A stretch of 64,000 bases of DNA from Candidatus Nomurabacteria bacterium (GTDB taxonomy: Bacteria; Patescibacteriota; Minisyncoccia; Phycocordibacterales; SBAW01): contig CALRFF010000002.1 in assembly GCA_943356495.1 (NCBI GenBank), positions 99,826 through 163,825 of the forward strand, given 5' to 3'. The translations under genes and the position numbers were made by a program. Below the pieces are notes generated by a model, which did not search any database, had not been told where the DNA came from, and worked only from the letters and a program-made list of their open reading frames with translations. Each line of letters starts with the position of its first letter. Positions within the stretch are counted from its first letter, which is position 1. Shown piece by piece: positions 5,818 to 31,842 of the stretch.

Positions 5818-6816
5818 ATGAAGTTATTTATCGCGCCAATTATAATTTCGCTGGTGGCGCTCGGCGCCGTGTATCTGTGGGGGGGACTCCCGGCTTTTAT
5901 ACTTGCCGCCCTGCTCTCGGTGCTCGAAATTACGCTCTCGTTTGACAACGCGGTCGTTAACGCCAAAGTGCTCGCACAAATGAGCGAGCGCTGGCAACGC
6001 CGGTTCTTAACGTGGGGCATCTTGGTAGCCGTGTTTGGCACTCGTCTTGTTTTGCCGGCAATTATCGTCGGGCTTGCCGCGTGGATATCGCCGCTTGCGG
6101 CAGCAGCCCTAGCTTTCGAGGATCCGGCGGCGTACGCGCACCTTCTTGAGGCGGCATCGCCCGCCATTAACGCCTTCGGCGGTGTCTTTTTGCTTATGGT
6201 GTCGCTCAAATACTTTTTCGATGTGGGTAAAAAAGTGCACTGGATAGCATGGATAGAGCGCTACTTGGCGCGCTGGGGCAGGGTAGAGGCTATCGAGCTG
6301 GCTATCGCGCTTGCTACGCTGCTCGGGCTTTCGTATCTTGCCGACAATCAGGCGCAGGTACTAGCCGCCGGCACCATAGGCTTGCTTACCTTTGTGGTTA
6401 TGCAGGGCATTACGAGCACGCTCGATTTTAAGGCCGGGCAGGTGGTGGCCGGAGGCGGCGTGCTATTTATATATCTCAACATTTTAGACTCGGCCTTTTC
6501 GCTCGACGGGGTGGTGGGCGCGTTCGCGCTTACTACGCAAATCCCCATTATCTTTGTGGGTCTTGGTATAGGCGCGTACTTCGTCCGCTCCATTACCGTA
6601 TATCTGGTGCGCCGCAAGACGCTCGAGGCCCTGCGTTATCTCGAGCACGGCGCGCATTGGGCGATACTCGGTCTCGGGCTCTCGATGCTGGTGGGTATTA
6701 TTGTCCACGTCCCCGAGGTAATCACCGGTCTTATAGGGTTGGTGTTCGTAACCTTGGCGTATGTGTCATCGCGCCGGGCGATACCCTCGCAAAAAACACT
6801 GGAGTCTTTGGGTTAG
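5818..6816 (+). CDS. TerC/DUF475-like integral membrane protein
   Basis: Multi-pass membrane protein with the LEITLSFDNAVVNA motif, which is the TerC-family LSxDN signature. Confidence 0.55.
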   Translation: MKLFIAPIIISLVALGAVYLWGGLPAFILAALLSVLEITLSFDNAVVNAKVLAQMSERWQRRFLTWGILVAVFGTRLVLPAIIVGLAAWISPLAAAALAFEDPAAYAHLLEAASPAINAFGGVFLLMVSLKYFFDVGKKVHWIAWIERYLARWGRVEAIELAIALATLLGLSYLADNQAQVLAAGTIGLLTFVVMQGITSTLDFKAGQVVAGGGVLFIYLNILDSAFSLDGVVGAFALTTQIPIIFVGLGIGAYFVRSITVYLVRRKTLEALRYLEHGAHWAILGLGLSMLVGIIVHVPEVITGLIGLVFVTLAYVSSRRAIPSQKTLESLG

Positions 6817-28812: not shown

Positions 28813-29496
28813 TTGATGATGTCGATGCAACCCGCATTGAACACGTCGCCGGTCGTGACCGCCGATAGCCCCAAGGGGCTGCGTGCGCTCGAGACCTTCC
28901 GCGCCCAATACAACAAGGCCCAGCTCGACGACGAGGGTGCCCAACTGCTCAATGAGCACAAGGACTTCGCCGCTTACTTAGCCGAGGGCATTCGCAAGTT
29001 CTCGACCAAAGGGTCGGTGTTCCCGGTTTATCTCGAGATCGAGACGGGCAGCAAGTCGAGGGACGAGCTGCTGAAGGAACTGAAGGCGGCCGAGGTCGAG
29101 GTCTCCAAGTACGCCAAGGACATCATGTCCAAGGACGCTTGGAAGCCTGGCGAGAAGCAGGTCGTCAAATTCGCGCGGGTCAAGGTGAGCGAACTCGGGT
29201 TCACCAACCCGAACAAGCTTCCAACGACTCGCGAGATCTGGGCACGCATCCAGGAACTCGGGCACAGCCTCTGCGAGCCGGCTGACGGCCCGGCCATCCG
29301 GCTGAGTCTCAAGGACCAGCCGCGCGGCGACTACTTCTGGACTGCGATGGAACAGATTTCGGACTCCGGCGGCAGCCCGAGCGTGTTCTTCGTCAAGCGG
29401 TACGACGGCGGCAAGCGCTGGCTCCACGACTTTTGGGTCCGCCCCGACGACCGGTGGTTTCTCGTCGTCGAGTTCGTGTTCCGTCTCCGCAAGTAA
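28813..29496 (+). CDS. DGR target (variable) protein, C-terminal CLec-fold-like variable region
   Basis: Its last 132 nt (the VR) match the downstream TR with adenine-specific substitutions. The TR-encoded ancestral C-terminus ...NDNWVNPDNQWNLDNEIVFRLR follows the Asn-rich, GFRxxR-like ending typical of C-type-lectin-fold DGR targets. Confidence 0.85.
   Translation: MMMSMQPALNTSPVVTADSPKGLRALETFRAQYNKAQLDDEGAQLLNEHKDFAAYLAEGIRKFSTKGSVFPVYLEIETGSKSRDELLKELKAAEVEVSKYAKDIMSKDAWKPGEKQVVKFARVKVSELGFTNPNKLPTTREIWARIQELGHSLCEPADGPAIRLSLKDQPRGDYFWTAMEQISDSGGSPSVFFVKRYDGGKRWLHDFWVRPDDRWFLVVEFVFRLRK
29360..29491 (+). repeat. DGR variable repeat (VR)
   Basis: 132-nt ungapped alignment to the TR with 19 mismatches, all opposite TR adenines. 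The 3' 21 nt are identical (IMH-like). Confidence 0.9.
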
Positions 29497-29543
29497 CACT
29501 CAAGTTTTAGGGTTTAGCCCTAACTCTTGGTCCTTAGCCCTTC

Positions 29544-29579
29544 GGCCCGCATCGCAAGATGCGGGCCGCTTTCTTTTTT
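29544..29579 (+). terminator. GC hairpin with GCAA loop plus T-tract downstream of the VR (terminator / DGR-associated stem-loop)
   Basis: ggcccgcatc-GCAA-gatgcgggcc followed by gctttcttttttg. Confidence 0.6.
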
Positions 29580-29813
29580 GTATACTAAGGAGCGGTAGTA
29601 GGCGAGTATGCGTGCGGCAAGGACTGCGCGCTGCCCAATCCAGCAGACTTGCGCTGAGAATTTTTTCAACTGCGGTTGAGAAAAGAGTGGTTCAAGCGAG
29701 CTTAAAAAATAGAAGATACTTGGTGCGAGGCGCTACGGCATTGCGATGCCAAATACGATACAGGTTCTTGAATAATCGAGAGCCGGTGGCACGGGCGGCG
29801 CCCCGCACATAAA

Positions 29814-29945
29814 CGGACTCCGACGGCAACCCGAACGTGTTCTACGTCAAGCGGAACGACGACGGCAAGCGCTGGCTCAACGACAATTGGGTCAACCCCG
29901 ACAACCAGTGGAATCTCGACAACGAGATCGTGTTCCGTCTCCGCA
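29814..29945 (+). repeat. DGR template repeat (TR)
   Basis: Noncoding copy of the VR. It contains the AAC/AAT codons (in target frame) at every position that differs in the VR. Confidence 0.9.
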
Positions 29946-29952
29946 GCTCTCT

Positions 29953-30351
29953 TTATTTCTCCCCTGCCTTGGTAGGGGAGTTTTGTTTTGCGAGCTGACC
30001 GCTCCAACCATTGAGCATCTTTCCTATCTCGTCGAGTGGTTGAGCTAGCGCTAAGTAGCGTTTGTCGCGCAGAGATTTTGTCTCCCAAAGAATCAGGAGT
30101 AAAAAGTTGAGCGTGTTGAGCTTTTGCAGAGCCAACAGTACTACGGGACTCTTTTTATCCTTGGGGGCATAGACCGCCGAGGTTATACGTTCGATAAGGT
30201 CAATAAACAAGATGTCTACTCTTTCGCCTAGCGTGTAGCGATGGGCCTTTGGCAGCGTAAGATAGTACTCATGCCACAACAAATAAGCCTGTTTGACCCG
30301 CTCCAAAATAGGCAAAAGCCGTTGGGGGGGGGCTCGTAAAAGAGGACTCAC
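29953..30351 (-). CDS. avd: Avd-like DGR accessory variability determinant (four-helix-bundle family), encoded antisense to TR/RT
   Basis: ILERVKQAYLLWHEYYLTLPKAHRYTLGERVDILFIDLIERITSA aligns with Bordetella bAvd (IVERYERVISYLYPIAQSIPRKHGVAREMFLKCLLGQVELFIVAG). Length is about 130 aa with a basic C-terminus. The start codon is uncertain (the ORF track used GTG). Confidence 0.7.
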   Translation of the reverse strand: MSPLLRAPPQRLLPILERVKQAYLLWHEYYLTLPKAHRYTLGERVDILFIDLIERITSAVYAPKDKKSPVVLLALQKLNTLNFLLLILWETKSLRDKRYLALAQPLDEIGKMLNGWSGQLAKQNSPTKAGEK

Positions 30352-31315
30352 TCATACATATGACGATATCATTTCTGTCGAGAACCTGCTCGCGGCATGG
30401 AAGGAGTTTCGGCGTGGTAAGCGGTCCAAGCTAGACGTGCTGGAGTTTCAAACTGACTTGATGTATCAAATCACCGCTTTGCACGATGAATTAAAGAACA
30501 AAACGTACAAGCACGGCGGCTACCACCACTTTCGCATCAGTGACCCAAAACCCCGCGACATACACAAGGCGAGTGTACGCGACCGGCTGCTTCATCACGC
30601 CATATATAGAAAGCTGTACCCGTTCTTCGACAAAAAGTTCATTGCCGACTCTTACTCCTGCCGCCTGGGGAAGGGGACGCATAAGGCGATGAGTCAGTTC
30701 CGCCGATATGCCGGCAAAGTATCCCGCAACCATACCCGCACGTGCTGGGTCCTGAAGTGCGACATCCGCAAGTTCTTTGCCTCGATCGACCACCGGGTGT
30801 TGTTCTCCATCCTCGAGCGCTCCATACCCGACTCGGATATCCGCTGGCTCTTGCAGGAGGTGGTCGGCAGCTTCCGTGCGAGGCTAAACCTCGCACAAGG
30901 GTTGCCGCTCGGGAATCTCACAAGCCAACTCTTGGTCAACGTGTACATGAACGAGTTTGACCAATACACGAAGCACACGCTCAAAGCCAAGCACTTCATT
31001 CGCTATGCGGATGATTTTGTGCTGCTTTCGCACAACAAAACAGAGCTAGAAAAAAGACTACGATATATCGTAGTCTTTCTATGGGACAAATTAAAGCTGA
31101 AATTGCATCCCAACAAAGTATCCATCAGCACCTTTGCCTCCGGCGTCGACTTTTTAGGCTGGGTGCACTTTACCGACCACCGTGTGTTGCGTACTGCGAG
31201 CAAAAAGAGGATGCAGCGACGGCTACGAGAGCAAGCAGGGAATGAAAGTACCCGTCAATCATATATCGGGATGTTGAAGCATGGGAATACCGAGAAGTTG
31301 CGGCAAAAAATCTGA
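30293..31315 (+). CDS. DGR reverse transcriptase
   Basis: N-terminus ISVENLLAAWKEFRRGKRSK matches the bRT-like WENLWAAYRKAARGKR. SYSCRLGKGTHKA is the DGR-specific motif. LPLGNLTSQLLVNVYM has the I/LGxxxSQ signature in place of QGxxxSP. RYADDFVLL is the YADD motif. Length is about 330 aa. The true start is probably downstream of the TTG chosen by the ORF track. Confidence 0.9.
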   Translation: MTRSKIGKSRWGGARKRGLTHTYDDIISVENLLAAWKEFRRGKRSKLDVLEFQTDLMYQITALHDELKNKTYKHGGYHHFRISDPKPRDIHKASVRDRLLHHAIYRKLYPFFDKKFIADSYSCRLGKGTHKAMSQFRRYAGKVSRNHTRTCWVLKCDIRKFFASIDHRVLFSILERSIPDSDIRWLLQEVVGSFRARLNLAQGLPLGNLTSQLLVNVYMNEFDQYTKHTLKAKHFIRYADDFVLLSHNKTELEKRLRYIVVFLWDKLKLKLHPNKVSISTFASGVDFLGWVHFTDHRVLRTASKKRMQRRLREQAGNESTRQSYIGMLKHGNTEKLRQKI

Positions 31316-31332
31316 TATGGTAAGGTACTTTC

Positions 31333-31842
31333 ATGGCAGAAACGTCGCAGGTCTCTCCGGAGATCTCATCCCAAGCGAACGCCGATGGCCGACCCGTATA
31401 CGAGGTCGGTTTTCACCTGCTCCCTAGCATACCCGAAGAGGGTCTTGGTGCGGTTGTAGAGAAGATCCGCACGCTGCTCGGCAAGGCGGAGATTATTGCA
31501 GAAGGCTTTCCCGCAAAGATGACGCTCGCGTACACTATCGAGCGCGCGCACACCGGCAAGCGCGACAAGTTTACCCAGAGCTACTTCGGCTGGATTAAGT
31601 TTGTGGTCGAGGACCGCTCTAACACGCAGGCGCTCCAAGAGTCGCTCCGCACTATGCCGGAGGTATTGCGCTTTTTGGTTATCGAAACTACCCGCGAGGA
31701 TGCCAAAGAGGCGCCGCGCCGTGCAGTCTTTAGCTCCGACCGTCTCGAGGGCGAAACCATCAAAAAGCCGGTTGCAGCCGAAAAGGGCGGGGAGGTCAGC
31801 CAAGCCGAGCTCGATAAGTCGATCGAGGCCCTGACCGGCTAG
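31333..31842 (+). CDS. rpsF: 30S ribosomal protein S6 (with N- and C-terminal extensions)
   Basis: The core YEVGFHLLPSIPEEGLGAVVEKIRTLLGKAEIIAEGFPAKMTLAYTIE matches S6. It is followed by ssb and rpsR in the conserved operon order. Confidence 0.8.
   Translation: MAETSQVSPEISSQANADGRPVYEVGFHLLPSIPEEGLGAVVEKIRTLLGKAEIIAEGFPAKMTLAYTIERAHTGKRDKFTQSYFGWIKFVVEDRSNTQALQESLRTMPEVLRFLVIETTREDAKEAPRRAVFSSDRLEGETIKKPVAAEKGGEVSQAELDKSIEALTG

Follow-up and report, generated by a model that had tools for sequence, protein, structure and literature searches.

A variable poly-G tract in the avd/RT overlap of a Patescibacteria DGR as a putative slipped-strand contingency switch

The window (the whole 64-kb stretch of DNA analyzed here), from a Patescibacteria (CPR) genome, carries a complete diversity-generating retroelement (DGR) at 28.8-31.3 kb. 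The element consists of a target gene with its VR, a TR, an antisense avd gene and an RT gene (Table 1), and the neighboring genes are metG, tatD, rpsF, ssb and rpsR. The sequence features named in the initial annotation of this locus were all present in the window. The target gene product gave no match in Pfam and NCBIfam family scans. TR and VR form a gapless pair of 132-135 nt with 19-22 mismatches, every one of them opposite a TR adenine (22 mismatches in the 135-nt pair, 19 when the first three are left out). The VR end and the stop codon of the target gene are separated by 5 nt.

Table 1. Features of the DGR locus (positions in the window)
Feature	Position	Strand	Remarks
DGR target gene	28813..29496	+	227 aa; VR at 3' end; from the ORF list
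VR	29360..29491 (about)	+	ungapped match to TR at offset 454
Terminator-like hairpin after target gene	29543..29568	+	11 pairs and T tail
TR	29814..29945 (about)	+	37 adenines, 22 differing in VR
avd as assembled (G9)	29953..30351	-	132 aa from GTG 30351
Conserved hairpin, CTCCCCTGC-loop-GTAGGGGAG then TTTTGTTTTG	29959..29990	+	terminator-like on the TR strand, directly after TR
RT upstream ATG	30271..30273	+	in frame at G8/G11 only; 347/348 aa, MPQQISLFDPLQNRQKPLGG-ARKRGLTHTY...
DGR RT as assembled (G9)	30293..31315	+	340 aa from TTG 30293; longest RT ORF
Alternative avd starts after tract	TTG 30315-30313; TTG 30306-30304	-	120 aa; 117 aa
Poly-G tract (G9), putatively hypermutable	30324..30332	.	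CCC codons in avd 5' end, GGG codons in RT 5' end
avd start conserved in relatives	ATG 30353..30355	-	complement of RT His-21 codon CAT

The RT matched RVT_1 at 9.8e-26, and its best solved homolog was the Bordetella bRT (8ub7_A, E = 2.7e-43, residues 22-313). Query residue 22 aligns to bRT residue 8, and the conserved part of the RT starts at approximately residue 21-22 (position 30353 onward). The DGR-type motif LGNLTSQ was aligned to IGSLTSQ of bRT. Judged from its sequence, the RT is a member of the DGR clade. It grouped with CPR DGR RTs upon clustering, and its nearest relatives came from Patescibacteria/CPR MAGs throughout. A scan of viral contigs with the RT returned just three matches, all at 28% identity; a phage-borne origin of this RT clade was therefore rejected, and the clade appears to be cellular.

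The Avd sequence scored 54.6 bits (1.1e-14) against NCBIfam NF033474, under the curated cut-off of 80, and 36.2 bits (9e-9) against Pfam bAvd PF22296, under the curated cut-off of 40. PDB searches with the single sequence and with an 18-sequence profile gave no match, so that a fold search was needed. In the AF2 model (18 homologs, pLDDT 86.8), Avd folds into a four-helix bundle whose helices span residues 12-30, 35-61, 64-90 and 96-124, the core bundle beginning near residue 12. When superposed on the Bordetella phage Avd (4dwl), the model gave TM scores of 0.76/0.90 with an rmsd of 1.4 Å. It also fits the Avd chains of the bRT-Avd RNP (8ub7), and the TM scores over the two structures were in the range of 0.73-0.90. 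The modeled fold identifies the minus-strand ORF at 29953-30351 as Avd, and a search of the locus for a better Avd candidate, which had been raised earlier as a possible objection, found none. The avd stop codon occupies 29953-29955, 7-8 nt beyond the TR end.

Relatives for comparison were 80 loci from species-representative genomes, 80 metagenomic loci and 2 contigs with the window's own Avd, giving 163 RT loci with the window included. Of these, 155 extend beyond the RT start on its upstream side, and every one of them has an avd gene that lies immediately next to the RT start and is read from the opposite strand; co-oriented avd was found in none, and the remaining 8 of the 163 contigs stop at the RT start. 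Such an arrangement, TR-(avd)-RT, was defined as architecture B3 and makes up 90% of the CPR DGR set in a previous work (Wu et al., 2018, NAR 46:11, PMC5758913). The window DGR belongs to B3, with a reverse-strand avd between TR and RT, and it shares with the CPR B3 DGRs the order and orientation of target/VR, TR, avd and RT as well as the host lineage. The initial annotation was correct in placing avd antisense; its view that this orientation is unusual does not hold, as the arrangement is already published and not new.

A hairpin within the last avd codons had also been described before, and its stem-loop was located at 29959-29980 (9 pairs, dG -26 kcal/mol, z -4.7, not equaled by any shuffle). 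The same bases code on the other strand for the conserved Avd C-terminus (...KQNSP..AGEK). At their avd 3' end, 104 of 140 relatives have an equivalent stem with a T tract, compared to 20 of 306 random windows, and a 27-sequence alignment contained compensatory changes in 6 of 7 hairpin pairs. With its GC-rich stem-loop and the following U tract on the + strand, the hairpin has the form of a putative intrinsic (Rho-independent) terminator. It is most likely the intrinsic terminator, or a 3' structure, of a separate TR transcript. Because the conserved terminator-like hairpin directly follows the TR, the TR RNA is predicted to be discrete and to end at this point. Transcription of the TR through the antisense avd, as considered in the initial annotation, is unlikely in view of the hairpin, the TTTTGTTTTG behind it and their conservation. 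A conserved hairpin after the TR would alter the template RNA shape expected for B3 DGRs. A permissive Rfam scan of 29400-30500 found no family and gave just two sub-threshold chance matches at the target-gene terminator.

The avd and RT ORFs overlap at 30293-30351. The presence of this overlap and of the nine-G run inside it was reported before and is confirmed here; the overlap measures 59 nt and not "up to 58". As assembled, the run is translated to A-P-P-Q in avd and to W-G-G-A in RT. The 64-kb window contains two G/C runs of at least 7, the G9 among them. Pure poly-G of 6-14 (mode 9-10) occupies the avd/RT junction in 132 of 149 non-redundant loci, with G9, G10 and G11 found at 46, 36 and 16 junctions, respectively. 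Another repeat takes this place at nine junctions: (GT)7-18 at six, and (CTGG)10, (GA)6 and a long poly-C at one each, the poly-C probably being an assembly artefact. At the other eight, the scan found no repeat; inspection revealed a G run in L096 and L129 and decayed remnants in L037 and L124. Outside the junction, just 9 G/C runs of at least 8 were found in 949 kb of related loci, compared to runs of at least 6 at 132 of the 149 junctions, which argues that the G9 tract is beyond chance. The tract site is flanked by the conserved sequences for Avd helix 1 on one side and the RT N-terminus on the other. A repeat tract that is long for the genome is located inside the 5' ends of both genes, as in known contingency loci. 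The repeat units seen at the junction are 1, 2 or 4 nt in length; none is a multiple of 3, and all of them are frame-shifting. The junction appears to be conserved as a repeat and not as a particular sequence. A G-quadruplex or another sequence-specific role of the tract is hard to square with the (GT)n, (GA)n and (CTGG)n replacements.

We compared the tract length among assemblies of the same organism. Ten further assemblies, the contigs behind the gene calls of the window's Avd cluster, were available besides the window. Of these 11, five carry G9 (window, L081, L082, L169, L170) and six carry G10 (L163-L168). A single extra G sets L163 and L164 apart from the window and is the sole difference in 3,354 nt, VR included. 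L165, also G10, differs from the window chiefly by a substitution cluster in the VR. The diversified VR of L165 suggests that the DGR is active in this species, and it provides indirect sequence evidence for ongoing mutagenic retrohoming (VR diversification). Both G9 and G10 were produced by each of the three pipelines, Logan, ENA and NCBI.

Beyond this organism, tract length also varies within five sets of assemblies whose sequences are identical or near-identical. L010 and L104 have G9 and G10 with 0 mismatches in 5,963 nt; the lengths are G9/G10 in L004/L090, G7/G9 in L005/L093 and G10/G9 in L009/L095. The same element recovered from four metagenomes carries G10, G8 and G10 in L139, L140 and L142, and an interrupted G6-A-G4 in L141. 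Two strains that are 99% identical (L038/L148) carry (GT)10 vs. (GT)7. Apart from the tract, the near-identical sets differ mainly or only in the VR, where the non-tract differences of L004/L090, L005/L093 and L139/L140 are clustered. As a control, 27 other homopolymers of at least 7 in the same alignments were inspected, and none contained an indel. These comparisons point to a hypermutable tract whose length is polymorphic among otherwise identical genomes, as would be expected of a contingency locus. The proposal that the G9 run is a slipped-strand site predicted length heterogeneity, and heterogeneity was found across independent assemblies (G9 in five, G10 in six); an invariant tract length, the outcome that would contradict the proposal, was not observed at the assembly level.

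ORFs were computed for tract lengths of G7-G11 in the window. Each 1-nt change in the tract shifts both reading frames, because the tract is downstream of both upstream start codons. At G8 or G11, Avd could be read from ATG 30355-30353 (MSESSFTSPPQRLLPILERV..., 133/134 aa) and RT from ATG 30271 (347/348 aa). At G9, the starts are GTG 30351 for Avd and TTG 30293 for RT. At G7 or G10, Avd is left with the TTG codons at 30315 and 30306, both after the tract, as its only starts, and RT has no canonical start, its frame at G10 being open upstream of the tract for only 54 nt. Together with the length variation between assemblies, these computed frames agree with the earlier suggestion that the tract is able to toggle avd and/or RT. 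By direct reading, no Shine-Dalgarno-like sequence precedes any of the candidate starts in the window.

An RT start downstream of 30351 would remove the overlap. It is impossible in the window, because no canonical start lies between the tract and the conserved N-terminal block: no in-frame ATG, GTG or TTG was found from 30332 to codon 48. ATG 30360 was rejected as RT start since it is out of frame and not conserved, and it arises from Tyr-Asp/Glu codons. A near-cognate start at window codon 15, the position homologous to the Met of relatives, was looked for and is absent. The 284-aa RT of the automatic annotation (from Met57) would leave out the conserved N-terminal block. In L003, L004 and L021 the equivalent of ATG 30271 is in frame with RT as assembled. 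RT lacks a start beyond the tract in the window and in about half of the relatives. In 53 relatives the RT has its own ATG, approximately 13-16 nt beyond the tract, so that only the avd frame can be toggled in these loci, or the tract may be a promoter spacer there.

The upstream avd ATG shows signs of selection. It is complementary to the His codon of the conserved RT H-T/S-Y motif, and among non-redundant loci this codon is CAT in 123 and CAC in 2, compared to a ratio of 1129:1151 in the rest of the same RTs. This bias suggests that the avd-strand ATG is maintained. Six loci lack a repeat tract, and in five of them an upstream ATG is in frame with avd. The anti-His ATG is found in the tract-less loci L055, L060 and L080; L062 has GTG at this position followed by a Met codon, and L037 has an ATG elsewhere. 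The upstream avd ATG is absent from L124, which has a decayed tract.

We then considered the 38 loci in which RT has no start beyond the tract. In 37 of them, the phase that brings the avd ATG into frame also opens an upstream RT ATG, compared to 25 of 91 for the other phases (Fisher 2.5e-14). The joint ATG phase can be ascribed to the codon-aligned antisense overlap, in which the ATG of each gene is complementary to a His codon within its partner; a further requirement is that the overlapped codons avoid antisense stops. Enrichment of the assembled phase for the ATG-in-frame state was expected and not found. Among CAT loci the three phases are distributed 12/22/21; as assembled, an upstream ATG is in frame with avd in 35 of 122 loci, and 7 of the 38 loci without a post-tract RT start were assembled in the ATG phase. 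G8 or G11 is present in none of the 11 assemblies of this organism. The lack of enrichment fits a switch that is mostly off, and it fits equally well a tract whose phase does not matter.

On this evidence the G tract is probably a slipped-strand contingency switch acting on the DGR machinery, and we infer an effect on protein output and DGR activity. The tract inside the head-to-head avd/RT overlap would gain or lose G's by slipped-strand mispairing. G8 or G11 would join the conserved ATG starts to both genes; G9, the assembled state, would leave only the weak GTG (avd) and TTG (RT) starts; and G10, found in other samples of the same organism, would leave RT without a start codon and restrict Avd to the TTG starts after the tract. 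DGR cDNA synthesis requires both Avd and RT, and for this reason the tract could set targeted hypermutation to on, low or off in a stochastic, heritable and reversible manner. Extended to the whole group, the proposal is that most CPR/Patescibacteria B3 DGRs carry a contingency locus that gates diversification, with both genes gated together in the subclade of the window; we regard this extension as evenly balanced. The phases encoded in DNA could be blurred if RNA polymerase slips, or ribosomes shift frame, on the tract.

A different explanation, which we consider unlikely, is that the tract is hypermutable but buffered. Avd would be made from a TTG after the tract and RT through a non-canonical start, polymerase slippage or frameshifting. 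Changes in tract length would hardly matter in that case, and the run would be kept as a tolerated poly-Pro/poly-Gly linker or leader. The about random assembled phases agree with such buffering, and the gene callers do pick TTG starts. TTG encodes the Leu ahead of the conserved helix-1 Pro of Avd in 61 of 107 loci, against a background of 18%. Position 1 of the NCBIfam Avd model and the start of the predicted helix 1 both fall at this TTG-rich Leu-Pro site, after the tract. These two observations make a short, tract-independent Avd plausible. With a short form of this kind, the switch may act to tune the amount of Avd. Buffering, however, does not account for the 123:2 bias toward CAT, by which the upstream ATG is preserved, for the in-frame upstream ATG in almost all tract-less loci or for the single phase that opens ATG-started frames for both genes. 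It also does not explain why a mutable repeat (G, GT, CTGG, GA) has been kept at this site across RTs that are 60-75% identical, and in the G10 state the window RT lacks a near-cognate start codon where relatives have their Met.

Transcriptional phase variation, in which the tract is the spacer of a promoter, or of overlapping divergent promoters, between avd and RT and its length tunes the -35/-10 spacing, appears more doubtful still. Promoter switches of this type are known with poly-G and with (TA)n tracts. In Haemophilus influenzae a (TA)n tract is such a spacer between the divergent, non-overlapping fimbrial genes hifA and hifB and co-regulates both. The window resembles hifA/hifB in having a single repeat tract between two divergent genes, and differs in that the tract lies within ORFs and that a promoter is not detectable. 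In the 57 relatives counted here as having an RT ATG after the tract, the tract is outside the RT ORF and a TAnnnT-like hexamer often follows it directly; a weak -35-like CTGGCA was also seen by direct reading approximately 7 nt upstream of the tract in several such loci. The subclade of the window, by contrast, has no -10-like hexamer after the tract, and the Pro codon that would form the -35 element uses all four synonymous codons. A sigma-70 consensus scan of 29450-30550 on both strands, with a consensus that may not be that of CPR, found no site. A frame switch predicts both the CAT/ATG codon bias and the joint ATG phase, whereas a spacer predicts neither. Homopolymer sequencing or assembly errors with no biological variability are highly improbable as the source of the length differences: the Illumina indel error climbs at G runs of at least 9, obvious poly-C artefacts occur at the tract site in two relatives (L006, L023) and 8 contigs end within approximately 110 nt of the tract, but both lengths recur in several independent samples through the same pipelines, 2-nt differences (L005/L093, L139/L140) and an interrupted allele (L141) exist, the control homopolymers do not vary in the same alignments, and (GT)n tracts, which are not error-prone, vary as well.

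Read as a slipped-strand frame switch, the tract resembles the poly-G/C contingency loci of Campylobacter jejuni, Neisseria meningitidis and Haemophilus (e.g., PMC4965091, PMC5084427, PMC11868660), which likewise have 7-14 G/C near the 5' end of the CDS. Length polymorphism between otherwise identical genomes and frame-shifting units of 1, 2 and 4 nt are common to those loci and the CPR junction. In contrast to them, one tract here shifts two overlapping divergent genes, its putative control is over a mutagenesis machine and not a surface structure, and the host is an uncultured CPR bacterium.

Another system for comparison is the DGR of Bordetella phage BPP-1, with an order of mtd-avd-TR-brt: avd is co-oriented and upstream of the TR, and the TR-brt spacer RNA is part of the template RNA. 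The window DGR is similar to it in that bRT is the closest solved RT, the Avd fold is shared (Avd 4dwl, bRT-Avd-RNA 8ub7) and the TR/VR differences are adenine-specific. It differs in the antisense avd between TR and RT and in the terminator-like hairpin after the TR. We know of no repeat tract in the BPP-1 DGR.

Literature searches that combined DGRs with poly-G, homopolymer, phase variation or SSR returned nothing relevant in the searchable literature. Wu 2018, Roux 2021 and PMC11661182, a survey from 2024, contain no mention of a junction repeat or homopolymer, a head-to-head start overlap, a frameshift or a post-TR hairpin. The searchable literature thus holds no earlier description of the hypermutable avd/RT tract; Paul et al. 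(2017, Nat Microbiol 2:17045), which was outside this comparison, may mention it. More than 130 loci across many Patescibacteria lineages carry such a tract. An always-on hypermutator risks ruining its own target, and to our knowledge the control of DGR activity in nature is largely unknown. If the frame-switch reading is true, a repeat switch in the overlap of two essential genes would be a simple control for a very large uncultured group, and the locus would be a two-tier evolvability device in which random phase variation gates targeted hypermutation. The tract offers a testable handle on DGR gating in this large uncultured lineage.

A contingency locus at this position would also account for the routine mis-calling or truncation of the RTs and Avds of these DGRs by annotation. 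Gene callers either reduced the window RT to a 284-aa fragment or missed it. For Avd they chose four different starts depending on the tract length, and the Avd cluster of the window holds gene calls of 109, 117, 120 and 132 aa. Since the RT and Avd calls are fragmentary or vary with tract length, DGR surveys may under-count or mis-describe such elements.

The divergent starts of avd (the DGR accessory protein gene, Avd being a four-helix bundle) and of the RT share 21 nt in relatives with a separate ATG for the RT, as for example at the related loci L065, L067, L056 and L034. The shared segment has the form ATG-N15-CAT and is read as M-x5-H in both strands, as MKIQLSH in the RT and MAQLNFH in Avd. 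The avd start is the complement of the RT His-7 codon, and the RT start that of the Avd His-7 codon. The conserved Pro in helix 1 of Avd is preceded by a Leu codon that was TTG in 61 of 107 loci, vs. 18% TTG for Leu codons elsewhere in avd. Such an excess points to a second start at the TTG, independent of the poly-G tract in the avd/RT overlap, from which a short Avd would be made.

Automatic gene calling (L081 and L163-L170, other assemblies of the same organism) yielded the RT as a 284-aa fragment from Met57. In several NCBI/ENA contigs it was uncalled, and an opposite-strand ORF of 100 aa was called in its place. Avd calls were 109, 117, 120 or 132 aa long. DGR surveys may mis-describe this clade.

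The tract tends to be a place where assemblies break or go wrong. In two relatives the expected G tract is replaced by 40-50 nt of poly-C (L006, 1-50; L023, ∼690-760), bordered by the end of a contig or by a run of N. Contigs ended within ∼110 nt of the tract in 8 of 163 cases (L054, L068, L079, L102, L113, L130, and L153 among them). The 64 kb contain only one other G/C run of at least 7, a G7 lying ∼20 codons inside a gene for a membrane protein; this might be another site prone to slippage.

Window features discussed in the text
Feature	Position	Strand	Remark
DUF475/TerC-family membrane protein ORF	5818-6816	+	Pfam 2.3e-94
G7 run	5879-5885
VR	29360-29491
Target-gene terminator	29543-29568
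Terminator-to-TR interval	29580-29813		∼230 nt
G9 tract	30324-30332
TTG before helix 1 Pro	30313-30315
RT	30293-31315
RT stop to rpsF	31315-31333		18 nt

In the interval between the target-gene terminator and the TR, neither a convincing ORF nor an Rfam match was found; it may comprise the promoter together with a structured 5' segment of the TR RNA. On the other side, rpsF begins so close to the RT stop, with ssb and rpsR following on the same strand, that the DGR is immediately upstream of a ribosomal-protein operon. Some CPR DGR cassettes contain ribosomal protein genes (Wu et al., 2018; PMC5758913).

Between otherwise near-identical pairs (L004/L090, L005/L093, L139/L140, and L165 vs. the window), substitutions concentrate in the VR, which is evidence at the population level for activity of these DGRs.
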